Virus record (IMG/VR): IMGVR_UViG_2609459839_000005
DNA from: a virus
Taxonomy: Duplodnaviria > Heunggongvirae > Uroviricota > Caudoviricetes
Length of the DNA stretch: 24,594 bases
Strand: one strand, 5' to 3'
Under the pieces are notes generated by a model. The model did no database searches, was not told where the DNA came from, and worked only from the letters and a program-made list of their open reading frames with translations. The translations under genes were made by a program, and so were the position numbers. Of this stretch, positions 1,944-24,594 are shown piece after piece. How positions within the stretch are numbered: position 1 is the stretch's first letter; each line of letters starts with the position of its first letter.

Positions 1944-1991
1944 ATGATAAAATTTTGTGATGGCGGTGAGGCTACACCGCCAAAGTCAATA

Positions 1992-6637: not shown

Positions 6638-6711
6638 GTTTTTCTCCTTAATTAAGGTTGAGCGAATCTCTACCATTTCTGGCATAAATTCAGTTTCGAA
6701 TAGTCAATTAA

Positions 6712-6882
6712 TTAAAGTTCGTGTGCCATCTGGTCTTTTTCGGCACAGATTTCACTACAATATTTTTTCATTTCCGTCGTTGGTATAACTCCACGCATGA
6801 AATGAAGTGGTCTTGTAATGATTTTGCTTTCTTCAATTTCTTTATTGCAAAGGTGATAAGCACATTTTATTTTCTTAGTCAT
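6712..6882 (-). CDS. ydaE: Small Cys-rich protein (YdaE-like; 56-58 aa)
   Basis: Not in the ORF track (below 60 aa). Hand translation of the minus strand gives (MV)[56 protein letters not shown] with a CxxxxC…CxxxC pattern. Alternative start at 6888. Confidence 0.45.
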   Translation of the reverse strand: MTKKIKCAYHLCNKEIEESKIITRPLHFMRGVIPTTEMKKYCSEICAEKDQMAHEL

Positions 6883-7103
6883 TACCATGACTCCGCCTTT
6901 ACAGGTAAACCATCACGACCGAGGAAGACTTTAATCATGCAGTCAGAAATGCATGTTTTTGTAGTCAGGCTACGAATATAAAGTTTTCGCTTTTTAATAT
7001 TGTTTGCCGAGGCGATATATGTCCGACCTTCATGAAGAACATAATCGCCAGGGGTCACACACTGACGTGGTATTTCATCAGTTCCGAAGTGATGAGCAAT
7101 CAT
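6882..7103 (-). CDS. kilR: KilR-like cell-division inhibitor (73 aa)
   Basis: ATG at 7103 ([15 protein letters not shown]...) follows GGAG with a 6-nt spacer; the track start at 7115 lacks an SD. Small basic protein in the kil position of a Rac-like early operon. Confidence 0.65.
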
Positions 7104-7511
7104 AATTATCTCCATTTTTACAAATGAATTTTGTCGATGCGGTGCCTGGTGCCTCCAGGTGACGTTAACCAGTTAACAATTAACGCCGGATAATCCACCC
7201 ATAACACTGATGCTTTTAACTGCGCCGCGTGCGCTTAGCCGCATTCACCGCATCACAAAATTCACTTTAAAAAGGGGCGGCAGGGCAGCTACGGAGTAGA
7301 ACTGGTGCCGCCAAAAACTAGACACAGCAATGTCGTTATTTACAACCGGAGGCGCACTCCCACCATTTAAATTTAACAGACAAGACCGACTCTTTATGGA
7401 TACCGGAAATGCGCCTTCGTATTGTGCCCGGTTTTATTTCACCACCTCCGGGCTTTGGTGGCCTCGGCTATACCCCTACAGCAAGAATATTGAATTAATC
7501 CAATAAATGGT

Positions 7512-7664
7512 TTAGCTGGTATTTTTGGCAAGCCAGCGACGTGCGCCAGCTTCGGTTTTAAACGATTTGCTTTTGGTATACGTCATGGCGGTGAATGTGC
7601 CGTCCTGATTGGGAAACACGCCACATACCAGAGATTCGTTGTTGCCAAGATCGATAGTATCCAT
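7512..7664 (-). CDS. Small hypothetical protein (about 50 aa; YdaF-like by position)
   Basis: Internal ATG at 7664 (MDTIDLGNNESLVCGV...) is preceded by GAGG; track ORF is 7512..7727. No motif recognised. Confidence 0.35.
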   Translation of the reverse strand: MDTIDLGNNESLVCGVFPNQDGTFTAMTYTKSKSFKTEAGARRWLAKNTS

Positions 7665-7913
7665 GTTGACCTCATTTCCCCTTAACGCCGGGTGGCGGAA
7701 CGTTTTATCTACTGCGCTTTGTATCAATCAACAACTGCCGTCATGTTCGTATGCCTCAGGCTGGCTACTTAGCCCTGTTCAGTGGCTGGATAACTCGAGG
7801 TATTGTCCTGCCGTTCTCTGGTGGGGCGTTGTTTGGATATGTTTATTAAACACAATTCGTTTTCTCATGTCAACACGAAGTGTGTTTTATAGTGGGTGTC
7901 ATATGATGATGGT

Positions 7914-7939
7914 ACAAAAAAGCCCGCTGATAGCGGGCT
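7914..7939 (-). terminator. Rho-independent terminator downstream of the repressor gene
   Basis: Hairpin AGCCCGC-tgata-GCGGGCT, followed on the minus strand by a U-run (plus-strand A-run 7915-7920), 30 nt past the repressor stop. Confidence 0.55.
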
Positions 7940-7969
7940 GATTGGCATATTACTGTGATAGCAAGATCA

Positions 7970-8389
7970 TTACTCCGGTGGGGGATTATCTTTAAGCCTG
8001 CCTCTCAAATATTTTTCTACATACTCATCGATTTCTTTTAGCCGGACTTCAAATAGCTCAATCATTCGTTGTTGTTCTGAGCCCGGTAGCTGGTTAAACA
8101 ACTCAAGAAGTTTTCGTTGGGATTCATTTAACCACAATTCAGAAGATTCCTGTTCTCCAAAGAGGAGCTCAGGAGGAGATATGCCAAGTGCCTTTCCCAA
8201 TACGACAGCGTCATGCACTCCAACATTTCTGCTGCCCGCCTCATAGTTACCTATACGCGATTGCGTCCATCCGCAGATTTCAGCAAGTTTTCCTTGAGAT
8301 AAACCAAGCTTCTGCCTGCGCTCTTTAAGACGCATTGCAATTTTGTCATTGAGCCTACTAGCGGCAATTTTTTCGTTTTCTTTTTCCAT
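7970..8389 (-). CDS. racR: XRE-family HTH repressor (cI-like, RacR-like), 139 aa
   Basis: N-terminal helix-turn-helix (…LKERRQKLGLSQGKLAEICGWTQSRIGNYEAG…). Divergent from a Cro-like gene across a 96-bp region with inverted repeats. Confidence 0.75.
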   Translation of the reverse strand: MEKENEKIAASRLNDKIAMRLKERRQKLGLSQGKLAEICGWTQSRIGNYEAGSRNVGVHDAVVLGKALGISPPELLFGEQESSELWLNESQRKLLELFNQLPGSEQQRMIELFEVRLKEIDEYVEKYLRGRLKDNPPPE

Positions 8390-8400
8390 TGCATCCTTGT

Positions 8401-8461
8401 ATCACGAATCGTGATTTACATAAAACACAAAACAGCTTGACCATATAACACAAGATGTGTT
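8401..8461. promoter_or_regulatory. Immunity-region operator/promoter: two inverted repeats within the divergent intergenic region
   Basis: Perfect palindrome ATCACGA-a-TCGTGAT (8401-8415) and AACACA-aga-TGTGTT (8447-8461). The second lies in the spacer of a plus-strand promoter candidate (TTGACC 8437-8442, TTTAAA about 8460-8465). Confidence 0.4.
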
Positions 8462-8485
8462 TAAAATTGTCATCGGAGGTTTTCA

Positions 8486-9000
8486 ATGAACAAAATTTCA
8501 ACATATCGAAAACAGCTTGGGCTGTCTCAAAGACAACTTGCTGTTCAGTTACCACATCACGCAAAGTGGCTTCAACGCTGGCAATGGCAATCAGCAAAGG
8601 TCGTCTGATTCGCGTAAATCAGGGCGGTAAATTTCGTTACTGCATACCGGGCGATAATTTACCAGCAGAGCCGAAAGCAGCATCGGTAGCGGAAACTGAT
8701 GGTAAGGCCTTTCCTCAGCCCGCAGGTGTTGCATTACCAGTACAGGAGGCTGCAACACAGGAAGATATTAAAACAGAAACGGTGGTGGACATTGTGCAAT
8801 CGCTGCCATCGTTTACTGAAACGCGAGCGGATGACCTGGTTTTACCATCGCTGCATATGGCAAACCGCGAACTGCGTCGGGCGAAAAATCATGTCCAGAA
8901 GTGGGAGCGAGTCTGCGCCGCGCTGCGGGAGCTGAACAAGCACCGGGATATTGTTCGACAGATTGTCGATTCCTCCAGTCGTATTGTGTCGGAAAAGTGA
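8486..9000 (+). CDS. Cro/YdaS-like early gene with disrupted reading frame (possible pseudogene)
   Basis: ATG at 8486 with GGAGG 8 nt upstream opens [22 protein letters not shown]…, which stops after 40 codons (TGA 8606-8608). The long track ORF 8455..9000 is in a different frame and has no SD at its own ATG. Confidence 0.4.
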
Positions 9001-10298: not shown

Positions 10299-10871
10299 AT
10301 GAGAGACATTGATGTAAGAAAGGCTGTGCATGCCAAGATTCTGAGAGATCATCATAAAGATCCTGACACCCTAATCATTGATGAGTTTACGATGAATCTA
10401 GGGGCTAGCAGAGCTGATATAGCAGTGATCAATGGGCTTATACATGGTTATGAGTTGAAGAGCAAGAGTGATAACTTGCTCAGATTACCAGCGCAGGTGC
10501 AACATTACTCATCAGTGATGGATAAAGTAACGTTGGTTGTCTCTGATTGCCATCTTTATGATGCTTTAAGCATAGTTCCATCATGGTGGGGGATAAAGCA
10601 AGTTACGCAAGGTGCACGGCAAGGTATCCATTTAAAAACAATTCGAACTAGCAAGTTGAATCCACAAGTGGACAAACTTTCCTTAACAATGCTTCTTTGG
10701 AAAGATGAATTGCTTTCCCTATTAAGTGATGTAGGGGAGCTACAGAATTTGAAAAATAAACCTAAACGCGTCTTATGGTCAAAACTCGCCAATAGTATGG
10801 ATGTTGGCGAGCTTCGTGAAGCTGTTCGAGTTAAACTTAAAGCCCGTAAAGAGTGGCGAGTTGCTCAATAA
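10299..10871 (+). CDS. PD-(D/E)xK-motif nuclease-like protein, 190 aa (first gene of candidate defence cassette)
   Basis: Translation has …IDEFTMNLGASRADIAVINGLIHGYELKSKSD…: Asp in a hydrophobic strand, then E-L-K about 12 residues later. AT-rich (about 35-40% GC in sampled 60-nt stretches). Weak SD, so the start is uncertain. Confidence 0.6.
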   Translation: MRDIDVRKAVHAKILRDHHKDPDTLIIDEFTMNLGASRADIAVINGLIHGYELKSKSDNLLRLPAQVQHYSSVMDKVTLVVSDCHLYDALSIVPSWWGIKQVTQGARQGIHLKTIRTSKLNPQVDKLSLTMLLWKDELLSLLSDVGELQNLKNKPKRVLWSKLANSMDVGELREAVRVKLKARKEWRVAQ

Positions 10872-11934
10872 CCTTAGTTATGTGATGGTTTTGCCCAATC
10901 CTACGCCATACCTCTGGGCTACCAAATTTATAGTTACCAGAGGGATTGGCTTTGTAGGCTTGATACTCGTTTGCATAATATTCTATGTCTCTATCTCCCG
11001 CACAGAATGTAGGCCCTGAATATTCTCGATGAGCAAGAATATCCTCACTATGTTTACCATATTGTTCATAACCAAAGCGATTAGCTACTCTTCCTCGAAA
11101 TACCCAAAAGTCATTATCTCCAGAGTATCTGACGCTGGCAGATACGCTAGGGAATCGCGTCGAAAGCCTATTAAAGTCGGGGTGCTGTACTCCATAATCA
11201 CTATAAATCACATTTCTGGCAAGTTCTTTTCTATTCATTAAACTCTGCCATAAAATCCACTCGATTCGAGGTTGAGAATATAGACCAACAGAAATATCAC
11301 TGAGATCTGTAGGAAATGAACCCCCAGAAAGAATCACTTTTCTGTATTCATTGAGGTGCGCCAGATTGTTTATCAATCCCATTGCCAAAGTATATAGTTC
11401 GCCGGAATTAAGTTTATCCTCGGTTAACTCATCTCTTAAGTCAATAATTATATCAATATTTGATAAAGGAATTCCCAGATGATTAATGTAATGCGTTATT
11501 AATTGTGGGTTAACCAGATCTAACGTGGTTAATCTCAAGCATATTTCATTCTGCATTAATTCATCAATCGCTCTTTTATAGTTAGATGGGCGAGTTGGTG
11601 AACTGACAGGAATAACTCTTATCCCCATATCTCTAACTTGATTAACCGCATTTATTATAGGGTAATGATCTTCAGGAGAAATAAAATGCTCTTCAATTAA
11701 TAATCCATCAATATAAACACCTTGCATATCTGAGCAAGATTTTGAGACTTTCTTTCCGAACTCTATAAGAGTCTCGTTATAACTCTTTAAGGCAATACCT
11801 GAATCAGGGTCAATTGGCACTGGTTCAATTTCGAGTAATGGCAAAATTTTTGATTTCTTTTCAATGGATAGCTGCGATAAAGCTGATAACTCAGAACGTT
11901 TCGCTTTCAGAATAGGAATATATGAAATTGTCAT
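10837..11934 (-). CDS. 365-aa partner protein of the cassette (possibly beta/sce7725-like family)
   Basis: Long clean AT-rich ORF (MTISYIPILKAKRSELSALSQL…) converging on the 190-aa gene, with 35 bp of 3' overlap. SD-like AAGG 7 nt ahead of the ATG. Family assignment is recollection only. Confidence 0.62.
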   Translation of the reverse strand: MTISYIPILKAKRSELSALSQLSIEKKSKILPLLEIEPVPIDPDSGIALKSYNETLIEFGKKVSKSCSDMQGVYIDGLLIEEHFISPEDHYPIINAVNQVRDMGIRVIPVSSPTRPSNYKRAIDELMQNEICLRLTTLDLVNPQLITHYINHLGIPLSNIDIIIDLRDELTEDKLNSGELYTLAMGLINNLAHLNEYRKVILSGGSFPTDLSDISVGLYSQPRIEWILWQSLMNRKELARNVIYSDYGVQHPDFNRLSTRFPSVSASVRYSGDNDFWVFRGRVANRFGYEQYGKHSEDILAHREYSGPTFCAGDRDIEYYANEYQAYKANPSGNYKFGSPEVWRRIGQNHHITKVIEQLATLYGL

Positions 11935-12646: not shown

Positions 12647-12713
12647 GAGACCAGGCGAGGGAGAAATCCCTCGCCACCTCTCATGTGTCAGGCATCCTCA
12701 ACGCACCCGCACT

Positions 12714-12737
12714 AAACCCGCTTCGGCGGGTTTTTTG
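12714..12737 (+). terminator. Rho-independent terminator of the hok-family transcript
   Basis: AAACCCGC-ttcg-GCGGGTTTTTT: GC-rich stem, tetraloop and T-run, about 70 nt past the hok stop. Confidence 0.65.
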
Positions 12738-12921
12738 TTGCGTGCTGAATGCGCAGGGTGAAAAATAACCATATATTTGATTATATACACAACAAAAAAT
12801 AAAAGTCATTGTACCTGCACATTAAATAATCAAATATACAGCGTGAAATAAATGTTTTTCAGATTAATATTTTTGTCTCTATGTGGATATAACCGTTTGT
12901 ACTTATAAACTCGGAGGCATC

Positions 12922-13134
12922 GTGGAAAAAATAAAGAAACTATTTAGTTGCAAATACGCAGTCATACGTCGTGATGACCTGTCAGTTATAGTCGAAATGG
13001 ATTACTTCCCTGACCCCCCAAAATCAATGATGTATCGTAATGGTCGAAAGGCAATTTTTTTACCGATGAGGGTAAGTGACATTATGGGAAATGATAAACT
13101 GCTGGATGAATTGCGAGTCAGAGCATCCTGTTAG
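12922..13134 (+). CDS. Hypothetical protein (about 70 aa)
   Basis: Track ORF 12883..13134. GTG at 12922 follows GGAGG (short spacer); the ATG at 12883 has no SD. No motif recognised. Confidence 0.3.
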   Translation: MEKIKKLFSCKYAVIRRDDLSVIVEMDYFPDPPKSMMYRNGRKAIFLPMRVSDIMGNDKLLDELRVRASC

Positions 13135-13205
13135 TATTGGCATTAATTCTGGTATACTACATAACGGGCTGAACACCCATTCTACTGCGCCAGCGGAGAA
13201 CTACG

Positions 13206-13805
13206 ATGGCGCATATACAACTGGTCAAACAAACCTCTTCCGGATTACTTCTCCCGGCGACGCCGGAGAGTTGCGATTTTTTGCATCAAATCAAAATAGG
13301 TGAGTGGATACACGCAGACTTTAAGCGTGTGCGTAACTACGCATTCCACAAGCGTTTTTTCAAACTCCTGCAACTGGGATTCGATTACTGGACTCCGGTC
13401 GGTGGGGCGATCACGCCTCGCGAACGAAAACTGGTATCAGGCTTCGTTGATTACCTGTGCGAATCAGTAGGTCGGGAACACACTCCAGCCCTGAGTGATG
13501 CCGCAGAGCAATACCTTAATACAGTTGCGACATGCAGAACCCGGGATACGGCATTGCTAAAGTCGTTTGACGCTTTCCGCGAGTGGGTAACCATTCAGGC
13601 CGGATTTTACACCGAGCATATTTATCCTGATGGTAGTCGTGGGCGCAGGGCAAAATCTATCGCATTTGCGAACATGGACGAAACCGAGTTTCAGCAGGTT
13701 TATAAATCTGTACTGAATGTGCTGTGGAACTGGATCCTGTTCCGTAAATTTTCCTCTCCGGAGGAAGTCGAAAATGTGGCCGCGCAGTTACTGGAGTTTG
13801 CGTAA
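13206..13805 (+). CDS. Nin-region phage protein, 199 aa (possibly DUF1367/YbcN-like)
   Basis: ATG preceded by GGAGA. First gene of a tightly packed plus-strand block that ends in a Q-like gene. Confidence 0.5.
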   Translation: MAHIQLVKQTSSGLLLPATPESCDFLHQIKIGEWIHADFKRVRNYAFHKRFFKLLQLGFDYWTPVGGAITPRERKLVSGFVDYLCESVGREHTPALSDAAEQYLNTVATCRTRDTALLKSFDAFREWVTIQAGFYTEHIYPDGSRGRRAKSIAFANMDETEFQQVYKSVLNVLWNWILFRKFSSPEEVENVAAQLLEFA

Positions 13806-14095
13806 TGGTGGATTTACGTAAAGCGGCGCGGGGGCAGATGTGCACCGTCAGAATTCCTGGCTACTGCAATCACAATCCCGAAACTTCTGTGCTGGCGCAT
13901 TACAGGCTGGCGGGGACGTGCGGAACAGCGATAAAGCCACACGATATGCAGGCAGCGATTGCCTGTAGCTCGTGCCACGATTTAATCGACGGGCGGGTAA
14001 AAACCAGCGATTACACCAAAGAAGAATTACGCCTGATGCATGCAGAAGGTGTTTTTCGCACACAAGAAATCTGGAGAAAGGAGGGATATTTATGA
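13805..14095 (+). CDS. YbcO-like small Cys/His-rich protein (DUF1364-type putative nuclease), 96 aa
   Basis: MVDLRKAARGQMCTVRIPGYCNHNPETSVLAHYRL…IACSSCHDLIDGR, with conserved Cys/His spacing as recalled for DLP12 YbcO. Start overlaps the previous stop. Confidence 0.55.
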   Translation: MVDLRKAARGQMCTVRIPGYCNHNPETSVLAHYRLAGTCGTAIKPHDMQAAIACSSCHDLIDGRVKTSDYTKEELRLMHAEGVFRTQEIWRKEGYL

Positions 14096-14634
14096 TTTAC
14101 CCAACGAATACAGGAAAAAGCGGAGAACACCTTCGTCTCACCACGCTGGAAAGTGTCTGGATTCAGGGAAAACTGCGCATGTGGGGGCGCTGGTCGTATA
14201 TTGGCGGCGGTAAGACGGGGAATATGTTCAACCAGTTGTTGGCCTCTAAAAAGCTGACAAAAACGGCAATTAACGAGGCGCTCCGGAGGATGAAAAAAGC
14301 AGGTCTGAACAAGTCTGAACTTGAGGCTTTTTTGCGGGATATGATTAACGGTAAGCAAAAGAGCTGGCTGGCGCATTGTACTGATGCAGAGGCGTTATGT
14401 ATTGATCGGGTGATTAGTGAAGTGCTGGCAGAACACCCAGGATTGATTTTTATCCTCCGGCAACGATATGAAGGAAGGGGGATGACTAAGCGAAAAATGG
14501 CTGAATTGCTAAATGATGCACACCCTGAGTGGTGTTTTAGCACATGCGAAAAGCGAATTGCTAATTGGTTGGCTGTTGCTGAGTATGCGCTGTACGTTCC
14601 CATGCGAGAATCATTCGCTCAAAAAATAGCTTGA
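14092..14634 (+). CDS. Putative late-gene antiterminator (Q-like), 180 aa
   Basis: ATG at 14092 overlaps the upstream stop (ATGA) and follows AGGAGG. Last gene before a non-coding stretch with a hairpin plus T-run, tRNAs and lysis genes. Assignment is by position; no motif confirmed. Confidence 0.45.
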   Translation: MIYPTNTGKSGEHLRLTTLESVWIQGKLRMWGRWSYIGGGKTGNMFNQLLASKKLTKTAINEALRRMKKAGLNKSELEAFLRDMINGKQKSWLAHCTDAEALCIDRVISEVLAEHPGLIFILRQRYEGRGMTKRKMAELLNDAHPEWCFSTCEKRIANWLAVAEYALYVPMRESFAQKIA

Positions 14635-14990
14635 TTTTTTACGCATAAACTGCTTCAATTCCGGTATGCTTCGCAAAGCTGTATCGCGAGGCGAATAGCA
14701 GTTTTGAACATCTAAAGACCCCGTTTAATGCGGGTTTTTTTATGCCCAAAAACGAAGTAGTGCGTTAAAATGTGATGGTCGGGAGTATACAGACTTTTAT
14801 ATAGCACTGCGTAAAAATCAATTTATCCGGGGTAAATGTCAATTTGCTTATTAAAAAAAACAAAAAGATAAATTTATAGCAATTGTGTTTCTTTGGGTTG
14901 AAAGTTTTAATGTCGTCAGTATTATCTGAAGCGGTTCTGAGGAGGGGGTTTCCATTGCTCGGCCACGATACTTCCGAGGAACCAATTAAC

Positions 14991-15066
<76 letters not shown>

Positions 15067-15069
15067 TAT

Positions 15070-15144
<75 letters not shown>

Positions 15145-15190
15145 GCAGAGGACGATGCTAGGCTGTTTCAGGCACTGACACATTATATGT

Positions 15191-15469
15191 GTGGGATGTT
15201 TTACCCTAACTCCTTACCACATCCTGTTCTGTAATGAATATTATTTATTACGGTACCAGTGTTGTTTTTTTACAATAGTGGAATGGTGCATTACTGGTGG
15301 AGATTTGTATTTCCTGGCAGGGCTGGTAATGTATCATTCCGGTGTTGTAAATAACACCCCAGAGACGTTCCTCAGTGCGAGGGTGGTTGAAAGAGTCGGT
15401 TTTGCGGGAAACCACAGCATCCATGCAGGACTGGATGTTTCGGGAGGCACCCGACGTCTCTGGTCATAA
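15191..15469 (+). CDS. Hypothetical ORF (92 aa), doubtful
   Basis: Track ORF only; no SD and odd composition. Sits where cargo genes lie in some lambdoid phages, but shows no similarity to Stx A subunits as I recall them. Confidence 0.2.
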   Translation: MGCFTLTPYHILFCNEYYLLRYQCCFFTIVEWCITGGDLYFLAGLVMYHSGVVNNTPETFLSARVVERVGFAGNHSIHAGLDVSGGTRRLWS

Positions 15470-15508
15470 TAAAATCATAGTGTTCTCTTCATGCCATTTT
15501 ATGCCATA

Positions 15509-15534
15509 GACCGCCACGCCAGGCGGTTTTTTTT
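15509..15534 (+). terminator. Rho-independent terminator
   Basis: CCGCC-acgcca-GGCGG followed by a T8 run. Confidence 0.55.
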
Positions 15535-15716
15535 ATTCAGAATTCAGTATTTATGCGGCTCGCTACGGCGGGCCTTTTTCATATCCGCGCCACGCCCGGC
15601 GCATATCAAAAACCACAGAGCCTTTCAGGGGTGAGCTTACGGGATGGTCAGTGTGACTTTCTCTGTGGGCTGGTCACCCCCGGGCGCAGGCCCACCCACT
15701 AAGAGGAAACGTCACT

Positions 15717-16143
15717 ATGTTTGGTATTTTCAAAAAGAAAACCCGCAAGGCCATTACTGAAGTGAAGAAAATGGAGAACCGCGACGCGGTGGAGGCGACC
15801 GTCTGGGGTGCATATTCCATTGCATACGCTGACGGCACCTGTGACGCGAAAGAAATCGCGGTACTGGAAAAAAACCATTGCAGCACTTCCTGTCTTTGCG
15901 CCGTTCTCCGGTGAGATTGCACAAATGAGTGCAAATATCCGCGCCCGTTATGAAGCGTCGCCGCGTTCTGCCAATGCCGAAGCTCTTCGTCAGCTGGCTG
16001 ATGTTGCCGGTACTGATGATGCAGTTAATGTGCTGTGCCTGTGTCTGGATATCGCTGACCAGGACGGTATCGGTCAGGAAGAAGAAGCGCAACTGAAGAA
16101 AATTGCGCAGGCGCTGCAGTTGCCGCTGGAGCAGTACCTGTGA
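15717..16143 (+). pseudogene. TerB-like protein gene interrupted by a +1 frameshift in an A7 tract
   Basis: Track ORFs 15717..15914 and 15808..16143 join into one TerB-like protein (…AYADGTCDAKEIAVLEK|TIAALPVF…DDAVNVLCLCLDIADQDGIGQEEEAQLKKIAQALQLP) if the A-run at 15868-15874 were 6 or 9 nt. GAGG upstream of the ATG. Confidence 0.5.
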
Positions 16144-16292
16144 AAAGTGCGCGCCTTGTGCTGGCTGTCATCCTGTTGTTTCTGGTAGTGGTGGTTGATT
16201 TCACCGGACGACTGATGTCGGTGCTGGCAGATGGTGTGCTGGTGGCGATGGCGCTGGTCGTGCTCCGGCCTTTACTGCGTAAATCTGAATAA
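16140..16292 (+). CDS. Small hydrophobic membrane peptide (about 50 aa), GTG start
   Basis: Hand translation VKSARLVLAVILLFLVVVVDFTGRLMSVLADGVLVAMALVVLRPLLRKSE. GTG overlaps the TerB-like stop (GTGA). No SD, so speculative. Confidence 0.3.
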   Translation: MKSARLVLAVILLFLVVVVDFTGRLMSVLADGVLVAMALVVLRPLLRKSE

Positions 16293-16302
16293 CATCACAC
16301 AA

Positions 16303-16340
16303 AAGGCATCTGCGGATGCCTTTGACGGGGTGTTTTTTAC
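16303..16340 (+). terminator. Hairpin plus T-run (terminator-like)
   Basis: GGCATC-tgcg-GATGCC followed by TTTgacggggtgTTTTTT. The interrupted T-run makes this weak. Confidence 0.3.
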
Positions 16341-16378
16341 GGGTCGCTGGTGGCCCTTTTTTATTTTCAGGAGGAAGT

Positions 16379-16771
16379 ATGTCTGAACCCTTATCCGGTT
16401 CCGGCACGGCTGCGGCGCTGGGTGGCGCGACGGTATTCGGGCTGTTTACCGGGATGGATTTCGGGATTGTGTTTGGCGCGTTCGCCGGGGCGTTATTTGT
16501 GGCAACGATGCCGCAGTCACTTTCAGTCTGGCGCGTGGTGGCACATTTTCTGGTGTCGTTTATTGTCGGCGTGCTGGGAGCGCGTGTGCTGTCAGCCTGG
16601 ATTGCATCAAAAACAGGGTATGACGGTACATCAGCAGATGCGCTTTGCGCGGTGCTGGTCTCGGTTGTGTCGGTGAAGATTCTCTCGTTCATCCACCAGC
16701 AGGATATTGCATCGCTGGTGTCCGGTGTGTTCTCCCGCCTGCGGGGTGGAGGAGGCGGCAATGTTAAGTAA
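16379..16771 (+). CDS. Holin-like membrane protein (about 130 aa, Gly/Ala-rich TM segments)
   Basis: ATG at 16379 after AGGAGG. Three predicted hydrophobic segments, directly upstream of a second membrane protein and the endolysin remnant. Confidence 0.5.
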   Translation: MSEPLSGSGTAAALGGATVFGLFTGMDFGIVFGAFAGALFVATMPQSLSVWRVVAHFLVSFIVGVLGARVLSAWIASKTGYDGTSADALCAVLVSVVSVKILSFIHQQDIASLVSGVFSRLRGGGGGNVK

Positions 16772-17036
16772 CCTTCCCGGATTGCTGAATGTGGTGTTAT
16801 GCACAGTTATCGTGCTGACGCTCTTTTTTTATCGTCGCCGTGATTCCAGACATAAACCGCTGGTGTCATGGCTGGCCTGGCTGCTGATGCTGCTGTATGC
16901 CTTTGCGCCCCTCAGTTATCTGTGTGGTCGCCCGTTAGCAACGGGCTGGCTGGAAGTGTTTTTTAACCTGCTGTTCTGCGTGCTGGTGATACGCGCACGC
17001 GGGAACGTCACAAAAATCTTTCCATTGTTGAGGTGA
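16761..17036 (+). CDS. Second small membrane protein of the lysis cassette (holin/antiholin-like, 91 aa)
   Basis: ATG at 16761 after GGAGG, overlapping the previous gene. Two or three TM segments and a basic stretch (YRRRDSRHK). Confidence 0.45.
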   Translation: MLSNLPGLLNVVLCTVIVLTLFFYRRRDSRHKPLVSWLAWLLMLLYAFAPLSYLCGRPLATGWLEVFFNLLFCVLVIRARGNVTKIFPLLR

Positions 17037-17038
17037 AT

Positions 17039-17254
17039 ATGTCGGGTAAATTCAGATTTAGTCGTCGCAGCGAAAAGAATCTGGAGGGCGTTAAACCACA
17101 GCTGGTTGCTGTCGTTCGCCGTGCGCTGGAGCTGACGGAGGTTGATTTCGGTATTACGGAAGGGCTGCGCACGAAAGAACGCCAGAAACAGCTGGTCGCG
17201 GAAGGGAAAAGCCAGACCATGAACAGCCGCCAGCTTTATAGCGTGGATAGATAA
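17039..17254 (+). pseudogene. Truncated endolysin (T5-type L-alanyl-D-glutamate peptidase, M15 family), N-terminal about 70 aa only
   Basis: MSGKFRFSRRSEKNLEGVKPQLVAVVRRALELTEVDFGITEGLRTKERQ… matches my recollection of the T5 Lys N-terminus. ORF stops at …TMNSRQLYSVDR, where the catalytic SxHxxGxAxD motif should be (His replaced by Gln). Confidence 0.6.
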
Positions 17255-17615
17255 CAATGCCGAGTCTTGAGGAATTATTCCTGCGCAGCAGTGCATCGTG
17301 CAGCAGATTTACCCGGACTACTATGTGAACATGGTTCAGCAACAGTTTGCCGGCTATTTTGCATCATTGGCAATTTCAAAGGTAGATGGAGCAGATAACC
17401 CCACCTATAACATCGATGTTGTGTTTTTTAATGGGACCAGTTACCGGACGCAGGTGCCGGTATGAATCACAGTTTTATGATAAAACTTTTACCTTGGTTT
17501 GGAGTGCTGTAGAGAGATATTTTAGGGGAGGCGAGTAATTTTCTAAGCTGGAGCATATTGACATATATTATTTCGGATTTGCAAAATACAGATTGTAACC
17601 ATGGAGGAGACAAGC

Positions 17616-18776
17616 ATGGAAAATTTTGCAAATAAGTTAAAAATACACACAGAGCATGTTGCAAAAATGGGGGTGTTTTGTACAACTGAAGAAACGACAA
17701 AACAAGCACTCATTATGCCATTACTAGATATTCTTGGTTTTACTCCGTATGATCCAAGAAAAGTCAAAGCTGAGTATAGTGCTGACTTCCCCGGGGTTAA
17801 GGCTAATGAACGGGTTGATTACGCTTTATTTTGTCATGATGTTCCTGTGATGTTCATTGAGGCGAAATCGTTTTCAGAACAAATTGATAATCACTGCCCA
17901 CAGCTATCAAGATATTTTAATTCAACACCGGAAGTTACTATATCAGCCATTACAAATGGTGTTGAATGGCGTTTTTTTACGGATTTGAAACAAAAAAACA
18001 TAATGGATTCAACGCCGTTTTTAAAATTAAGAATGGATTCTCTAACTCACTCCGATATTACACAATTATTTCGTTTTCGTTATGATAAATTCAAACCAGA
18101 GGCTTTACGGACACTGGCTGAAGAAAGTGTTTATTTGAATTCATTTACTAAAACAATCAGTTCTAGTCTTCGTGAAGTTGATCTGGAGTTTGTTCGATAT
18201 GTTGCTAGTCGTTCAAATATTGAGAGGCAACTTAATCAGAGATTTCTTGAGTTCGTGACTCCATTAGTTAAACAGGCCGTTGAGCGCGCTGTTAGCGCAA
18301 TGGTGGTTTCCGGGCTATCTACACAACCGGTAGAGCAAACTAAAGAAAATGATGCAACGGATACACAAGTTAATAACGCCATTGTTGATGAAGAAAACCC
18401 CAACATAATAACCACAGCCAAAGAATTGGAGCTATTTGAAAGGGTAAAACAAATCATACAAACAGAAGATAATATAGAATATAAAGATACTGAGTCATAT
18501 TTCGGTGTACTATTGAATGGTAAAACTAATAGATGGCTGTTAAGATTTTATGATAAAAAATCTTCATTTATAACTTTACCTATTTCGCTTAGTGAAGTTC
18601 AGTTGAATGAAATAAGACGAGCTCGACTTGATACGGATGGTAAAAGGATACATATAACTAATCCGGAAGATATACTTCGCATATCTGGTTTGATTCTGGA
18701 TTCATACGAGTATGTTAAAAATGATGATAATTTCCGCCGAGGGTCCAGAGTGAGCAGTTTAGAAGAGGTTGAATAA
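17616..18776 (+). CDS. 386-aa protein with N-terminal HsdR-N/Mrr-like PD-ExK nuclease motif and uncharacterised C-terminal domain
   Basis: N-terminus …TKQALIMPLLDILGF…KAEYSADFPGVKANERVDYALFCH-DVPVMFIEAKS… gives an E…D-x13-E-A-K arrangement. ATG at 17616 after GGAGGA. AT-rich (about 35% GC in a sampled stretch), own promoter candidate and a strong terminator. Confidence 0.68.
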   Translation: MENFANKLKIHTEHVAKMGVFCTTEETTKQALIMPLLDILGFTPYDPRKVKAEYSADFPGVKANERVDYALFCHDVPVMFIEAKSFSEQIDNHCPQLSRYFNSTPEVTISAITNGVEWRFFTDLKQKNIMDSTPFLKLRMDSLTHSDITQLFRFRYDKFKPEALRTLAEESVYLNSFTKTISSSLREVDLEFVRYVASRSNIERQLNQRFLEFVTPLVKQAVERAVSAMVVSGLSTQPVEQTKENDATDTQVNNAIVDEENPNIITTAKELELFERVKQIIQTEDNIEYKDTESYFGVLLNGKTNRWLLRFYDKKSSFITLPISLSEVQLNEIRRARLDTDGKRIHITNPEDILRISGLILDSYEYVKNDDNFRRGSRVSSLEEVE

Positions 18777-18778
18777 GT

Positions 18779-18806
18779 AAAAAACCCGCGAAAGCGGGTT
18801 TTTTAA
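18779..18806 (+). terminator. Rho-independent terminator
   Basis: AAAACCCGC-gaaa-GCGGGTTTTTT immediately after the stop of the 386-aa gene. Confidence 0.7.
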
Positions 18807-18816
18807 TGGAGTAAAT

Positions 18817-20043
18817 ATGTCAGAAATACCAATTACTATGACCAGTGCGGGTGCGCAGCCTACGCCACCCAATGATTTGCTCGCGAATCTTATCACTAGA
18901 GTTGCTGAAAAAGTACCTGGATATACAGCCAACCTTCCGGCGGGGCTTATTACAGACCTTGCCAGCACGGCTGTCGGGGCGCTGGCATTAATAGACCAGG
19001 CGCGGGTGGACCTTATTAACTCCGTAAGCCCATACGGCGCGAATATTCCGTTACTGATGCAACTCGGAAACATATATGGAGCACAGAAGGGATTAAGTAC
19101 AAATACGGCGGTATACGTGGTGTTTGAGGCGTTGCCGGGGTTTGGTATCCCTAAAGGATTTGTTGTCGGTGACGGCAACTACCAGTATGCGGTTTCCCGC
19201 GATACCGTGGTACCGGAAAACGGGCAGACTGAGCCAGTCTACTGTGTGGCCACAACGTCAGGCTCATGGGCTGTACCGGAAGGGACCGTGACGCAGGTCA
19301 TTACCTCAGTACCCAAAGACCAGCCTGTAAAATGCACCAACTTTACCGCAGGAATGCCCGGTCAGGAGGCGCAAACGTGGGCATCTTACCGCGCCGAAGT
19401 CATGGAGTCCGGCATGTTTGGTGTGCAGGGAACACCGGATTGCTTTAAAGCTATGCTCAAATCAGTAAGCGGTGTGCGAGAAAACCTGATTTCTTTCCGG
19501 CAGTCGTCGCTGGGGAAATGGGTTGCGGTTGTTGGTGGCGGTGATCCGTATGATGTGGCTTATGCGATTTACAAATCTGTACCGGATATTTCGAAACTGA
19601 CCAACGATGTAAGCAATCCATCCGGTGCGGCAGTGGAAAAACGCACGGTTTCAATAACCGTTTCGCCGGACGTTTATCAGGTGCCTTTCGTTATCCCGTC
19701 ATCACAAAACGTCATGGTGCTAATCACCTGGAACACGGTGTCTGATGATTATGTTGATCCGGCGGGTATTGCTATGGCTGTGCAGCAAAACGTTGCTGAT
19801 TACATCAATTCAATTGAAGTCGGACACCCGATAAATCTTCTGCGTATCCAGGATATTTTTACCAGTTCTGTCAGGTTGCTGGTTGATGCGACGTTGATCT
19901 CAACAATCAGTGTGAGCATTGGTATTAACGGTCATATTGTTCTTCCGGCGAAAGACACAAGCCTGGTTTATGGCGATACCTATTCCTATTTTTCAACGGT
20001 GGCATCACAGGTTCAGGTCAACAAGTATGCAATATCTGACTGA
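18817..20043 (+). CDS. Baseplate J/gp47-like protein, 408 aa
   Basis: First gene of a co-directional tail block; size and position fit a Mu/P2-type baseplate protein ahead of a DUF2313-like gene and fibre genes. Assignment from module context. Confidence 0.5.
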   Translation: MSEIPITMTSAGAQPTPPNDLLANLITRVAEKVPGYTANLPAGLITDLASTAVGALALIDQARVDLINSVSPYGANIPLLMQLGNIYGAQKGLSTNTAVYVVFEALPGFGIPKGFVVGDGNYQYAVSRDTVVPENGQTEPVYCVATTSGSWAVPEGTVTQVITSVPKDQPVKCTNFTAGMPGQEAQTWASYRAEVMESGMFGVQGTPDCFKAMLKSVSGVRENLISFRQSSLGKWVAVVGGGDPYDVAYAIYKSVPDISKLTNDVSNPSGAAVEKRTVSITVSPDVYQVPFVIPSSQNVMVLITWNTVSDDYVDPAGIAMAVQQNVADYINSIEVGHPINLLRIQDIFTSSVRLLVDATLISTISVSIGINGHIVLPAKDTSLVYGDTYSYFSTVASQVQVNKYAISD

Positions 20044-20653
20044 GAAAATTCTCCCTGCTTATCCATTTGCGCAGTACAGAGATGATCCGAATGTTGTTGC
20101 GTTCTTTGATGCATACAATGAAATTGCTCAGGAATACCTCGATTCACTCAACAATCTGGCATTGCCATGCTGGACATCGGAATCAATAACCGGGCAATTA
20201 CTGGACTGGATTGCACTCGGGATTTATGGCGTTGAAAGGCCTTTACTACAGGTTTCCGAGGAGGCTATTGCACGCGGCGCATACGATACCATTGAATACA
20301 ATACGATCCCGTATGCAGCAATGCGGAATTATGTTCCGGGGCAGGCATCGTATGTACCTGATGATTATTTCAAACGAATATTAACGTGGAATTTTTATAA
20401 GGCTGACGGTTCGCATTTCTGCATTGACTGGTTAAAGCGCCGTGTGGCGCGGTTCATTCATGGGAAAAACGGAATAGACCCGCCGTTGCAGCACACTTTT
20501 GATGTGAGCGTGACTGTATCGGACAGTGTTTTTTCTATTCAGATACCAGAATATGGTGATGGTATAGGCTATTTTCTGAAAGATGCCATTGACCAGAAAT
20601 ATGTAAAACTCCCTTTTATTTATTCCTATGCAACAACGGTGATTCAAAAATGA
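20027..20653 (+). CDS. Tail protein (Mu gp48 / P2 gpI / YmfQ-like), about 208 aa
   Basis: Internal ATG at 20027 (MQYLTEKILPAYPF…) chosen because the track start at 19919 overlaps the upstream gene by over 100 nt. Lies between baseplate and fibre genes. Confidence 0.45.
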   Translation: MQYLTEKILPAYPFAQYRDDPNVVAFFDAYNEIAQEYLDSLNNLALPCWTSESITGQLLDWIALGIYGVERPLLQVSEEAIARGAYDTIEYNTIPYAAMRNYVPGQASYVPDDYFKRILTWNFYKADGSHFCIDWLKRRVARFIHGKNGIDPPLQHTFDVSVTVSDSVFSIQIPEYGDGIGYFLKDAIDQKYVKLPFIYSYATTVIQK

Positions 20654-22200
20654 TTCTTGGATTCGGCAATAACGTTGTTTCAGCACTGGCTGGTGATATT
20701 ACGACGATTCAGACTGATATTCCGGTGATGCCGGGCACGGGAGCTAAATTTGCAAAATTGCTTTCTGCCGATTTTGAAAATAAATCGAACGGGCAACGCG
20801 TCTATGCAAAAATTACGCTTACCGATAATAAAGAGTCAGCGTTTGAGATTTGTCACCTGGTATCGGTAAGCGGTGATGTGCTGAAAGTCATTCGTGGGCA
20901 GGAAGGAACAACCGCGAAAGGTTGGTCCCTTAATGACGTTGTGGCTAACTTTGCCACACGTGGATCGGAAAACTATTTCGTACAGATAGCGCAGCTTCAG
21001 AGCGGTCATTATATTGCAGGTGTCGCTGGCGGCACTGCAAATGCACTGACGCTGGAGCTTCCCGCGACGTTTTTTGTTAATGGAGGTACAGATTGGACGC
21101 TACGAACTCCTATTATCGTTTTCCCCGTTCAGAACAATACCAACGCCGCAACGCTTCAATTGACACTGGGCGGAAAGGTTCTTGGTACGTTTCCACTTTA
21201 TAAGGGGAACAAGTCCGGGCTGGTAGCGAACGATATCATTAAAGGTATTCCCTTAATTTGCCTTCTTGATAGCGAGAAAAGCTATTTCAGCGTGATAAAC
21301 CCCGGCAATATCTATTCAGATTTTGATCTGCGATATGTAAAAAAATCTGGTGATTTGATGACCGGGGAGCTGAAAATCCGTGGTGTTAATGCACTGAGGA
21401 TTTTCAACGACGCTTTTGGTCTGATTTTTCGTCGTTCGGAAGAGTGCCTGCACCTTATTCCTACCAGTGAAGGTCAGGGCGAGAATGGCGATATTGGTCC
21501 ACTTCGACCGTTCACTATTAATCTGCGGACGGGTGAAATATCCATGTCGCATAAAGTGTCTGTTGGCGGTGGTTCTCAGGTCAATGGTGCGCTGGGTATC
21601 GGCGTTCAGAACGCGCTGGGCGGAAACTCAATTGCTTTCGGGGATAACGATACAGATATAAAACAAAACGGCGACGGCATTCTGGATGTTTATGCGAATG
21701 GACAGCATGTATTTCGTTTCCAGAATGGTGTGGCGATAGCGTTAAAAAATATTCAGGCCGGAAATGCTAAAAAATTCACGTTATCCAGCGCCAACAACTC
21801 AACGAAAAACGCAACGTTTAATTTATGGGGCAATTCGTCCCGTCCTGTAGTTGCAGAGCTTGGTGATGATTCCGGCTGGCATTTTTACAGCCAGAGAAAT
21901 ACGGATAACAGTATAACGTTCGCTGTAAACGGACAGATGGTCCCGTCAAATTATGGAAATTTCGATGCCCGTTACCAGACCAAATCAGGGGGCGTGCAGA
22001 ATTTTCAGTACACCAGTGAGGTGTTTTACAACCCTGGTGGGAATGAGCGCAGCTGGACGTTTCGGGCACCTTCTGGTTGTGTTTTGTCAGGCATTAATGT
22101 TCAGGACACTGGCAGTAACTCTGCAGATAATATCGGTGGCGTGTATTACAAACAGGCTCAGATTTATATCAATGGTGCATGGCGATCCGTATCAGGTTAA
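20650..22200 (+). CDS. Tail fibre protein, 516 aa
   Basis: Start overlaps the previous stop (ATGA). Gly/Asn/Ser-rich beta-type composition, immediately followed by a tail-fibre assembly gene. Confidence 0.55.
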   Translation: MILGFGNNVVSALAGDITTIQTDIPVMPGTGAKFAKLLSADFENKSNGQRVYAKITLTDNKESAFEICHLVSVSGDVLKVIRGQEGTTAKGWSLNDVVANFATRGSENYFVQIAQLQSGHYIAGVAGGTANALTLELPATFFVNGGTDWTLRTPIIVFPVQNNTNAATLQLTLGGKVLGTFPLYKGNKSGLVANDIIKGIPLICLLDSEKSYFSVINPGNIYSDFDLRYVKKSGDLMTGELKIRGVNALRIFNDAFGLIFRRSEECLHLIPTSEGQGENGDIGPLRPFTINLRTGEISMSHKVSVGGGSQVNGALGIGVQNALGGNSIAFGDNDTDIKQNGDGILDVYANGQHVFRFQNGVAIALKNIQAGNAKKFTLSSANNSTKNATFNLWGNSSRPVVAELGDDSGWHFYSQRNTDNSITFAVNGQMVPSNYGNFDARYQTKSGGVQNFQYTSEVFYNPGGNERSWTFRAPSGCVLSGINVQDTGSNSADNIGGVYYKQAQIYINGAWRSVSG

Positions 22201-22213
22201 TTAAGGAGAAATA

Positions 22214-22744
22214 ATGGAACTCGTAAACGTTACGCGTTACTACCCTGAAGATATGCCTTATGGTGAAGGCATTCAGTATTTCCGTAGTGAAGACGGGCAG
22301 GATTTTTATGAATCACTGGATAAGTTCACGAAGAAATACAAGCTGTGCACACATCCTGAAACCGGCGTTATTTATTCCATGGCGGAAGATGTATCCCGCC
22401 TTTATCCCGTTGGTTTTACCATTGTGGAAGTGGATGAACTACCGGAAGGATTTTGTATTGAAGCCCGCTGGTATTATAAAGACGGTGAAGTACTGCCGGT
22501 CCCTGTTGACTACCGGCAGCAGGCCGAGTCGGAGCGTGCACGTCTTACTGCGATTGCCGAACGGGAAATATCCGATAAGAAGACGGATTTACTTCTGGGA
22601 ATCATCAGTGATGAAGAAAAAGAAAAGTTGACAGCCTGGCGCATTTACGCGAAATCGCTGCAGGCGATGGATTTCAGCACCATCGCTGATAAAACCTCAT
22701 ATAACGCCATTGAATGGCCCGTCTCTCCGGAAGCCTCTTCCTGA
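22214..22744 (+). CDS. Tail fibre assembly protein (Tfa), 176 aa
   Basis: AAGGAG upstream. C-terminal …LLLGIISDEEKEKLTAWRIYAKSLQAMD… matches the conserved Tfa chaperone motif. Confidence 0.75.
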   Translation: MELVNVTRYYPEDMPYGEGIQYFRSEDGQDFYESLDKFTKKYKLCTHPETGVIYSMAEDVSRLYPVGFTIVEVDELPEGFCIEARWYYKDGEVLPVPVDYRQQAESERARLTAIAEREISDKKTDLLLGIISDEEKEKLTAWRIYAKSLQAMDFSTIADKTSYNAIEWPVSPEASS

Positions 22745-22767
22745 TTTAATTTATCGCGAGAAAAACT

Positions 22768-24594
22768 ATGTCTGTAGTGATATCAGGTGCGCTGATAGAT
22801 GGCGCAGGCATCCCCATGTCCGGATGCCACATAATTCTGAAATCCCGGGTAAACACCTCAGAGGTGGTGATGCGCACAGTTGCCGACGTGGTGACAGGAA
22901 ACTGTGGCGAGTACTGTTTTAAGGCGCAGACCGGAAAATATTGCGTATATCTGAAACAGGACTGGCGCGACGAGTACTATGTTGGCGACATTGCTGTATA
23001 CGACGACTCAAAGCCCGGCACGCTGAACGACTTTCTGACTGCCCTTGATGAAGGCGATTTAAAGCCGGATGTAGTGAAACGATTTGAGGAAATGGTGGTG
23101 CAGGCACAGCAGAGTGCTGAAATCGCAGCATCATGTGCAGAACAGGCAGGGCAAATATTAAATAACATCCAGGAGGTTGCAGGGCAGCTTTCCACAGTAC
23201 GCTTCGAAAATTTTAACGATATTAGCAGGCGGTGTACGACAGCCATGCTGAAGCTGGAACAACCCGAGGTTGTTAATACATCAATATCTTTAAAAATAAA
23301 AGAAAATATCGATTTTAATTATGTCGGTGCAGTTAACGGATATTGCGATATTCCTGAACCTGAAAAGTATAAAGTCGAAATGTATGCTTATACAACTGGA
23401 GAGTATTTTAACGGCGACGCTAATTTGAATAGTGACGGAACTTTCTATTTCAGACGTTGCTGGACGGGAGCAAAACAGTTTCGTCTTATTCGGATTGAGG
23501 ATAATGCGTGGATCACAACGCTGGAATTTCCGCTGCTCATTCGTAGTTACTGGATGCCAGAGGACGCAGATCCTGACGTGATCAGGGTGATGAAAGACCG
23601 ATGTTACACGTATGACCAGGCGCTGGCAGCACTGGCGTTGATGGTTCAGCGACATGAAGCTGTGGAAAGATACGTTTCAGGTTTGTGTGCACTTGTTGAT
23701 GAAAACGGCGGGGTGAAATTTTTTGTTAACAGGCTGTCGGCCATGTCTTCGCGCGCCTATTATCGACTGGGCAATGCGGCATGGGTTTACTATGCCCTTG
23801 CGTTCTATCTGGAGAAATACCCGGACGGAGCACAGGTAAATATTGTTCGGGCAAAGTTGTTATCTGGCATCAGCTGGCTGGATTCTTTCCTGGTAACCGC
23901 CCCTGGTGATTTACGTGAAGGCCTGTATAAAGGCGGCCTTGGTCGTTATGTAAATGGCGAATTTGACGCCAGTTTCGTTGCCGAATGGTGCGCACTGGAG
24001 CATAACGTTGATATCTGGTTTTTGTTTGAACTGATGGGGAGACTGGAATTTGACGGCTTCATTCAACGCGCCGATGCGCTGGCAAAAAGTATCATCAGGG
24101 GGTTCTGGATGGAAGAGGAAGGCCGGTTCCGGCAGGGAGTACACCCAACCAGTTATGATAACGCGGCGGCTCTCGATCAATCGTCATGGGGCGGGCTGTT
24201 TGTAGCGAATATAGACATGGCTAAAGCTGTACGTTGTCGTAAGTATATGGGGCGTTTCTTTTTTGGCACCCGCGAAGCCACGGGTTACACACCTTACCAC
24301 CCCGATTATGGATACAGTGGTCACAGTCGAGGTGTATGGGTGGAAGGGACCGCAGGAGTGGCACTTTTTGAGAGAAAGCTTGGAAACGAGGTTACAGCAG
24401 TGAATCTCATTGCAGCAATGGCACCGCTTCGTGATGAATACGGCTATCGTGATTCATGCGATGACCCGGCATATGATGTGCTCCCACCCTGGCCATCAAC
24501 AACAAACACGGCGTGGGTAATCCTGACAGTAAAACCTGATAATTTTTGGCTGGTAGATTCACCGATCATGGACGTTGGCATGATTCGATACTGA
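22768..24594 (+). CDS. Side-tail-fibre-like protein with enzyme-like C-terminal domain (putative polysaccharide depolymerase), 608 aa
   Basis: N-terminal about 120 aa resembles the conserved lambdoid Stf N-terminus (MSVVISGALIDGAGIPMSGCHIILKSR…YDDSKPGTLNDFL…). The rest is helix- and aromatic-rich (…AWVYYALAFY…LDQSSWGG…WVEGTAGVAL…), suggesting an (alpha/alpha)-toroid glycosidase-like fold. Stop is at the window end. Confidence 0.55.
   Translation: MSVVISGALIDGAGIPMSGCHIILKSRVNTSEVVMRTVADVVTGNCGEYCFKAQTGKYCVYLKQDWRDEYYVGDIAVYDDSKPGTLNDFLTALDEGDLKPDVVKRFEEMVVQAQQSAEIAASCAEQAGQILNNIQEVAGQLSTVRFENFNDISRRCTTAMLKLEQPEVVNTSISLKIKENIDFNYVGAVNGYCDIPEPEKYKVEMYAYTTGEYFNGDANLNSDGTFYFRRCWTGAKQFRLIRIEDNAWITTLEFPLLIRSYWMPEDADPDVIRVMKDRCYTYDQALAALALMVQRHEAVERYVSGLCALVDENGGVKFFVNRLSAMSSRAYYRLGNAAWVYYALAFYLEKYPDGAQVNIVRAKLLSGISWLDSFLVTAPGDLREGLYKGGLGRYVNGEFDASFVAEWCALEHNVDIWFLFELMGRLEFDGFIQRADALAKSIIRGFWMEEEGRFRQGVHPTSYDNAAALDQSSWGGLFVANIDMAKAVRCRKYMGRFFFGTREATGYTPYHPDYGYSGHSRGVWVEGTAGVALFERKLGNEVTAVNLIAAMAPLRDEYGYRDSCDDPAYDVLPPWPSTTNTAWVILTVKPDNFWLVDSPIMDVGMIRY

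Follow-up and report, generated by a model that had tools for sequence, protein, structure and literature searches.

Genes and Features of the Locus

The whole stretch of DNA analysed here, referred to as the window (24.6 kb; 24,594 nucleotides), is occupied by a Rac-like prophage, as indicated by its gene content and by comparison with intact relatives. The early genes of the minus strand are followed, after kilR, by the repressor, a Q-like gene, two holin genes, and the baseplate J and tail-fibre genes (Table 1). Among 5,426 complete E. coli genomes, the closest match is the prophage of strain 214-4 (99.1% identity, 96% of the window covered), which sits between ttcA and uspF and spans 47.8 kb versus the 24.6 kb of the window. 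The genes intR, xisR, ralR, recT, recE and kilR are 98.6-100% identical to those of this prophage. The NCBI contig of a carrier strain (312 kb) runs on into uspF and ompN, while ttcA itself lies outside the window; the element has the Rac-type integrase and early region at the ttcA locus by which a Rac-like prophage is recognised. The 214-4 prophage serves, at this level of identity, as a stand-in for the direct ancestor, and the breakpoints derived from it are exact within microhomologies of 2 bp. A second intact relative, F9792, shows the same deletion picture.

Table 1. Features of the window. J0, J1 and J2 are deletion junctions; L003 denotes the 214-4 prophage sequence and L004 the contig of GCA_001912105.1.
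Feature	Position	Strand	Description
intR	1-1236	-	Followed by xisR, ralR, recT, recE and kilR, minus strand
Junction J0	8550-8551		2-bp microhomology TA; separate 3,154-bp deletion, L003 9551-12704
Holin 1	16379-16771	+	130 aa, Phage_holin_8; 100% identical to 214-4 over 130 aa; PF16931 on the identical L004 gene
Holin 2	16761-17036	+	91 aa, Phage_holin_3_7; 100% identical over 91 aa; PF05449 in L004
Truncated endolysin ORF	17039-17254	+	ATG 17039, TAA 17252-17254, 71 codons
Junction J1	17231-17232		2-bp microhomology CA, endolysin L003 21390-21391 / island source L003 33048-33049; 11,658 bp lost
Island	17233-17275	+	43 bp from the middle of the deleted block, L003 33050-33092; direct orientation, collinear order
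Junction J2	17276-17277		2-bp microhomology TA; 8,535 bp lost
rac59-like remnant	17276-17465	+	3' end of a 115-aa baseplate-module gene, from the last base of codon 53 through codons 54-115 to the stop
Low-GC moron	17466-18776	+	32-40% GC; promoter-like site TTGACA-18-CAAAAT at 17558-17587, and the HSDR_N gene
HSDR_N-domain endonuclease-like gene	17616-18776	+	386 aa, 100% identical to the 214-4 protein

The Truncated Endolysin

The endolysin ORF begins directly after the stop of the preceding gene, holin 2. Its codons 1-64 are those of the native 125-aa M15/LAS endolysin of 214-4 (98.5% identical over residues 1-66 by tblastn). Codon 65 lies in the motif S-x-H-x-x-G-x-A-x-D and reads CAG (Gln), versus CAC (His) in the intact alleles, because J1 falls after the second base of the His65 codon; codons 66-71 (LYSVDR) and the stop are supplied by the island, read out of its native frame. 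An earlier note on this DNA had described an endolysin ending after about 72 residues, exactly at the catalytic motif and with its His read as Gln. The truncation and its position, at the first zinc ligand, are borne out, and the length is corrected to 71 codons.

Profile searches delimit what has been lost. The window ORF matches the endolysin family phrog_465 (E=1e-33) at profile positions 39-105 only, versus 39-166 for the intact 125-aa protein, and it has no Pfam match, whereas the intact protein carries PF13539 (Peptidase_M15_4) at residues 58-123. Compared with solved structures, the intact protein aligns over residues 4-124 with ChiX (5opz, E=1e-42) and with T5 Lys (2mxz, E=2e-23), and it also matches 8q2g, the structure of an L-Ala-D-Glu endopeptidase. 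The alignment with T5 Lys-type endolysins that the earlier note had proposed places the end of homology at His65 of an allele that is 125 aa long when intact. In ChiX, zinc is bound by His68, Asp75 and His123, and Asp120 is the essential catalytic residue, together with Arg47 in the active site (PMC5778951). By spacing, these residues map here to His65, Asp72, His120, Asp117 and Arg44, respectively.

Measured against the M15 family, the window ORF retains homology over just its N-terminal 64-66 residues instead of the whole catalytic domain. The zinc-ligand arrangement His-x6-Asp...His is broken, with His65 replaced by Gln and both Asp72 and His120 deleted, and the catalytic acid Asp117 (ChiX Asp120) lies in the deleted part. 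The lysis-cassette context has been kept, the endolysin ORF following on from holin 1 and holin 2 without a break, with a Q-like DUF1133 gene upstream. The ORF is, by descent, a predicted pseudogene of the T5 Lys/ChiX M15 family. Since only Arg44 of the active site is kept, its 71-aa product is predicted to be a non-enzyme that, given the established mechanism of the family, cannot bind zinc or cut peptidoglycan.

The Downstream Remnant and the Island

The DNA beyond the endolysin had been described as an unrelated, out-of-frame ORF fragment of some 210 bp without a start context, and this description holds. The remnant reading frame (...VNMVQQQFAGYFASLAISKVDGADNPTYNIDVVFFNGTSYRTQVPV) stops at TGA 17463-17465 in a frame other than that of the endolysin ORF, and its sole possible start, GTG 17298, lacks a preceding Shine-Dalgarno sequence. 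The stretch 17255-17466, which the earlier note had left to be identified, contains the 62 last codons of a baseplate-module gene, namely rac59 of phage Rac-SA53 (WP_001261327.1, phrog_7986). The remnant is 100% identical to residues 54-115 of the 214-4 protein (tblastn) and 97.4% identical to the Rac-SA53 gene. Its 55-aa ORF matches phrog_7986 (E=1.7e-26) at positions 61-115 of the 115 in the profile instead of over the full length, as befits a gene fragment. With no translation signals, the remnant is not expected to function.

In intact phages the parent gene lies 20 kb from the lysis cassette, between the spike (V-like) and baseplate J genes, so that the remnant is not part of that cassette, to which the earlier note had assigned it. 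The parent is possibly a sheath-initiator or baseplate-wedge protein comparable to P2 gpW, T4 gp25, Mu gp46 and TssE. Structure prediction for the rac59-like protein gave a medium-confidence model with weak fold matches, and searches of Pfam, NCBIfam, PDB sequences and PADLOC with this parent and with the HSDR_N moron protein returned nothing decisive.

Between endolysin and remnant lies a 43-bp island that was absent from the earlier account. Its source is located 11.7 kb into the lost block, where the stop of a phrog_6560 gene overlaps the start of a phrog_6359 gene. A 45-bp query covering the island matches this native position at 100% identity in 27 complete genomes and at 95-99% in a further 58; in all 85 complete genomes with a match it lies at the same two-gene overlap, and never beside an endolysin. 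The same search led to the rejection of positions 17236-17275 as unmatched 'filler', since it places their sequence inside the deleted block. The island also brings with it the native ATG of the phrog_6359 gene, which opens a 23-codon ORF (17257-17328; MPSLEEL..., then the remnant read out of frame) that is very unlikely to be of consequence.

Architecture of the Deletions

In BLAST comparisons with the 214-4 prophage (L003), the window decomposes into collinear blocks: 1-8551 corresponds to L003 1001-9550, 8550-17232 to 12703-21391, 17231-17277 to 33048-33094, and 17276-21728 to 41628-46079. Both flanks and the island share the same orientation and show 98.7-100% DNA identity to this one intact prophage. 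J1 and J2 make up a compound deletion of 20.2 kb with the island retained between them, its left breakpoint inside the His65 codon of the endolysin and its right breakpoint in codon 53 of the rac59-like gene; the 3' half of the endolysin and the downstream 60-aa gene form its left edge. Read base by base, each of J0, J1 and J2 shows exactly 2 bp of microhomology and no longer similarity, and neither an IS element nor a repeat longer than 2 bp is found at any of the three joints. Direct observation covers the breakpoints, the residues lost, the intact state of the neighbouring genes and the fact that the junction recurs in independent assemblies; the comparison with intact relatives is deterministic, involving no statistical signal.

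The separate deletion at J0 removed the 3' part of a cro-like gene, the five genes ydaT, two small genes, a DnaT-like and a P-like replication gene, and the 5' part of a DUF1627 gene. The product of ydaT (cII-like) is toxic when overexpressed (PMC5917428). As a side product, J0 joins codons 1-32 of the cro/ydaS-like HTH gene, in frame, to the stretch encoding residues 105-253 of the DUF1627 (ydaW-like) protein, which creates a 181-aa chimeric ORF in the region 8455-9000.

Gene Losses and the State of the Prophage

Gene-by-gene comparison with 214-4 shows that the window lacks 25 genes of the intact relative and carries four others in cut form. Besides the five lost in the replication region at J0, the absent genes comprise 20 between the endolysin and the rac59-like gene: the 60-aa gene after the endolysin, ParB/Srx, the small and large terminase genes, portal-region, head and tail genes, the tape measure, the baseplate hub and the spike. 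The sheath and tube genes also fall within the 20.2-kb loss. The 60-aa protein carries a lipobox-like LVGC motif and may have been a spanin lipoprotein. Still present are int/xis, recET, kilR, the repressor, Q, both intact holins, the morons and the tail-fibre genes.

The retained genes that were compared are intact, and most are 99-100% identical to those of 214-4, including the holins, Q, the HSDR_N moron and baseplate J; only two genes beside J0 (about 91%) and the mosaic tail-fibre end depart from this. Since these genes are intact and mostly so similar, the deletions look recent. The earlier note had spoken of a decayed lysis cassette, which is apt for the endolysin, since it is cut, and inapt for the cassette as a whole: with both holins unchanged, the cassette stands at the edge of a large deletion and was not eroded gene by gene or by point mutation. 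Its further reading as a cryptic prophage with missing replication and head genes agrees with the absence from the window of the replication, terminase, portal, head and most tail genes. The element is such a cryptic prophage by prediction, and it should be incapable of replication, packaging and lysis. Upon derepression, KilR and the holins could be expressed.

Other parts of the window deserve a brief description. The 386-aa moron protein next to the remnant has only an N-terminal HSDR_N nuclease-like domain (phrog_4225, 'endonuclease') and no PADLOC match. In Rac-SA53 the corresponding slot, bounded by rac59 and baseplate J, is filled with an antirepressor and two further genes, and this difference in contents marks the slot as a moron exchange site. 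At 10299-11934, a convergent overlapping pair encodes an sce7726/P4-cII-like protein (190 aa, + strand) and a 'beta family protein' (365 aa, - strand); the pair matches the PADLOC models 'cll' (E=2e-28) and PD-Lambda-2_C (E=2e-41) and is a candidate anti-phage defence module. Upstream of the holins (15717-16143), a TerB-family gene is split into two overlapping ORFs by a frameshift that is also an annotated pseudogene in the intact F9792 and 214-4 prophages, and is thus older than the deletions. Finally, at 21728-22768 the C-terminal part of a 516-aa tail-fibre protein and its assembly protein show 81% and 42% protein identity to 214-4, respectively, between flanks of 99-100%. This corresponds to a swapped host-range cassette in a prophage predicted to make no particles.

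Other Decayed Copies

Independently decayed relatives provide further joints. In L010 (GCA_013694195.1), a deletion of about 21 kb joins codon 8 of holin 1 to codon 43 of rac59 with the microhomology 'TT' (L010 2947-2948). This joint was considered as an IS1 target-site duplication and rejected, since such a duplication would lie on the other side. B4103-1 (L013) has two internal deletions with overlaps of 2 bp and 3 bp (19554-19555 and 23187-23189), one of which truncates holin 1; B4103-1 and MB06101 (27.9 kb) cover the window alike. In yet another allele (L012 1-578) an IS1 end abuts rac59 at L003 41606, and the contig ends on the other side. The low-GC moron is kept in all decay alleles found through the remnant look-up.

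The right breakpoints of L010, the IS1 allele and the window fall within 32 bp of one another (L003 41597, 41606 and 41628, respectively). A recombination hotspot at this site was rejected as mostly a matter of ascertainment; the exact 55-aa look-up detects only truncations located about 54-180 bp upstream of GTG 17298. A separate case is P0028 (L008 1118-1330, a Logan DRR517650 contig), in which an M15 endolysin allele of 83% identity is cut at the same His codon (...MNSRQ, then GKLTF*). Downstream of the cut lie AT-rich non-coding DNA and then a Peptidase_S24 gene, with no 3' part of the endolysin on the contig, and megablast of the contig found no match in E. coli. P0028 is an independent truncation that strikes the identical codon, probably by coincidence, which is expected at roughly the 5% level.

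Occurrence of the Scar

Homologues of the 71-aa ORF were sought among 5.8 billion protein clusters. Leaving aside entries named partial, the homologues that carry the Pfam peptidase domain have lengths of 121-125 aa; most of the shorter entries aligned bear the name partial or stem from contigs of very small size, and the remainder represent other truncations or frameshifts. The exact 71-aa sequence occurs in a handful of contigs (three counted in one look-up, six read in another) and has been deposited as EYE25613.1 and EYE38064.1 from E. coli 1-110-08_S1_C3. All contigs retrieved with it carry the same scar. A 151-bp sequence across the junction is found exactly in NCBI assembly GCA_001912105.1 (L004), and the Logan assemblies SRR9330559, SRR1186308 and ERR10505581 each show one ungapped alignment over it at 99.97-100% identity. 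The junction occurs in none of the 5,426 complete E. coli genomes. An exact scan of GTDB contigs gave 0 matches, which is uninformative, as that set holds one genome per species. The earlier note had named full-length homologues of about 73 aa ending at the same point as the observation that would speak against a truncation; the 71-aa form is found only as identical copies of the deletion allele. The 71-aa copies represent a single deletion allele and not a family of short proteins.

Origin of the Scar

Taken together, positions 17039-17466 very probably mark the place where a Rac-like prophage of full size suffered a compound deletion of 20.2 kb. The literature mentions such full-sized prophages (PMC5917428), and a relative of full size that has been described is Escherichia phage Rac-SA53 (KU052037). 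Before the deletion, the source element would have been a full-size prophage of the Rac-SA53 type, located next to ttcA and equipped with a myovirus-type baseplate, and we hold this best explanation as a whole with high confidence.

Several other explanations of the same DNA have to be weighed. Short-read assemblers might have collapsed the prophage, so that the 20 kb would still be present in the strains; indeed, the carriers found are all draft or SRA-derived assemblies, and no complete genome has the junction. Yet assemblies from four different accessions cover it, the exact 151 bp in L004 and three Logan contigs without gaps, the joints share just 2 bp and offer no repeat able to cause a collapse, and the 312-kb NCBI contig continues into uspF and ompN, all of which makes such an artefact highly improbable. 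A synthetic join was rejected on the same recurrence in four independent assemblies. Almost as improbable is a genuine short protein or functional N-terminal fragment, for instance a regulator or holin partner. The native start and the translational coupling to holin 2 are kept and the ORF is annotated as a protein in NCBI, whereas the lengths of its domain-bearing homologues, the partial, short-contig, truncated or frameshifted nature of most shorter ones, and the origin of the last six codons as an out-of-frame read of another gene all argue against it, as does the loss of three zinc ligands, the catalytic Asp and residues 66-125, which is almost the whole Pfam domain (58-123). The joints might, alternatively, be mosaic boundaries left by recombination with another phage, or by an insertion. 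Lambdoid prophages are highly mosaic, and the tail-fibre end of the window is itself swapped relative to 214-4; against this, flanks and island are collinear and equally oriented with one intact prophage at the identity given above, both cut genes are incomplete, and the island is found only at its native position in 85 genomes. A mosaic origin of the joints is accordingly held to be extremely doubtful.

The remaining alternative concerns the number of steps. Two independent deletions of 11.7 kb and 8.5 kb, in either order, could have ended 43 bp apart and left the island between them. The same prophage has a clearly separate third deletion at J0, and relatives such as B4103-1 carry two separate internal deletions, multi-step decay being normal in this family. 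On the other side, with tens of kb of dispensable DNA available, a second deletion would have an endpoint no more than about 45 bp from the first scar with a probability of the order of 0.1-0.5%, and no allele with J1 only or J2 only was found, either by exact look-up of the 71-aa and 55-aa ORFs in an index of 153 billion genes or among the 5,426 complete genomes; the lineage is rare, so that the missing intermediates are weak evidence. Sequential deletions are, on balance, unlikely. We favour the formation of J1, island and J2 in a single compound event, which we regard as fairly probable, because a second endpoint so close to an earlier scar is unlikely a priori and because the look-ups able to detect a J1-only or J2-only allele returned none. 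The island, which along with the uniform microhomology of 2-3 bp is the one mildly unusual feature of the scar, suggests a single multi-step joining.

The joints probably formed by microhomology-mediated illegitimate joining, through either alternative end-joining or template switching, on 2 bp each; the pathway is deduced from junction anatomy. Microhomology is present at all six independent non-IS joints (2 bp at each of the three in the window; 2, 2 and 3 bp in the decayed relatives), while the random expectation of at least 2 bp is 0.156 per joint, or about 1e-5 for six out of six. In E. coli, alternative end-joining is Ku-independent and RecBCD-dependent and uses microhomologies of 1-9 nt or 1-3 nt (bioRxiv 10.1101/605246). 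The microhomology at the six joints fits this pathway, or replication template switching. As a short patch in direct orientation that derives from the DNA between the breakpoints, the island looks like the templated insertions known from template switching. Work by Chayot and colleagues in 2010 reportedly found that alternative end-joining rarely involves DNA synthesis; if so, the island would fit template switching better than simple end-joining. We therefore offer, tentatively and as a joint proposal that seems to us slightly less probable than its contrary, that a single event of serial template switching made two jumps, one of 11.7 kb and one of 8.5 kb, with 2 nt serving as the primer for each and 43-47 nt copied in between and, more generally, that the uniformity of the six joints would make RecA-independent end-joining or template switching, and not IS elements or repeat recombination, the principal way in which these prophages are disarmed in E. 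coli.

Implications for Annotation

The scar is an ordinary, textbook cryptic-prophage scar in a known prophage family, and its importance lies in little more than annotating it correctly. Database entries name the 71-aa ORF 'L-alanyl-D-glutamate peptidase domain protein' and the 55-aa ORF 'hypothetical protein'; both merit a flag as pseudogene fragments, and the element merits annotation as a Rac-like remnant that is predicted to be non-inducible. Together with its independently decayed relatives, the locus provides a small, clean natural set of deletion joints with 2-3-bp microhomology and one templated-looking patch, which could help the study of how E. coli prophages are disarmed. It also illustrates an intermediate state, in which two intact holins, a Q-like gene and kilR persist without an endolysin.

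Comparison with Known Systems

The intact endolysin allele shares with T5 Lys (2mxz) and ChiX of Serratia marcescens (5opz) the arrangement H-x6-D...D-x-x-H and lies directly after the holin genes, as expected of an endolysin. Unlike these enzymes, the window copy breaks off where the first zinc ligand should stand and lacks every catalytic residue. As for the joints, they resemble the products of alternative end-joining and of FoSTeS/MMBIR-type events in combining large deletions with 1-3 nt of microhomology, in the absence of longer repeats and IS elements; alternative end-joining is characterised by its dependence on RecBCD and LigA, whereas the joints of the window are known from their sequence.

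Regarding the prophage, Rac of E. coli K-12 and Rac-SA53 have, like the window, intR next to ttcA, xisR, ralR, recT, recE, kilR, a racR-like repressor and ydaS/ydaT-type regulators. The Rac-SA53 record follows the same order of lysis, terminase, head and tail genes, bppV, rac59, the moron slot and a baseplate J-like gene. It differs from the window in having another endolysin (182 aa by annotated coordinates) and LT-IIa toxin genes after the lysis cassette, which are absent here. The K-12 Rac prophage, of about 23 kb, is likewise a defective deletion derivative. The scar of the window is analogous to this K-12 remnant but independent in origin, since the two elements were reduced by independent deletions with other breakpoints, and the window has a myovirus-type late region.
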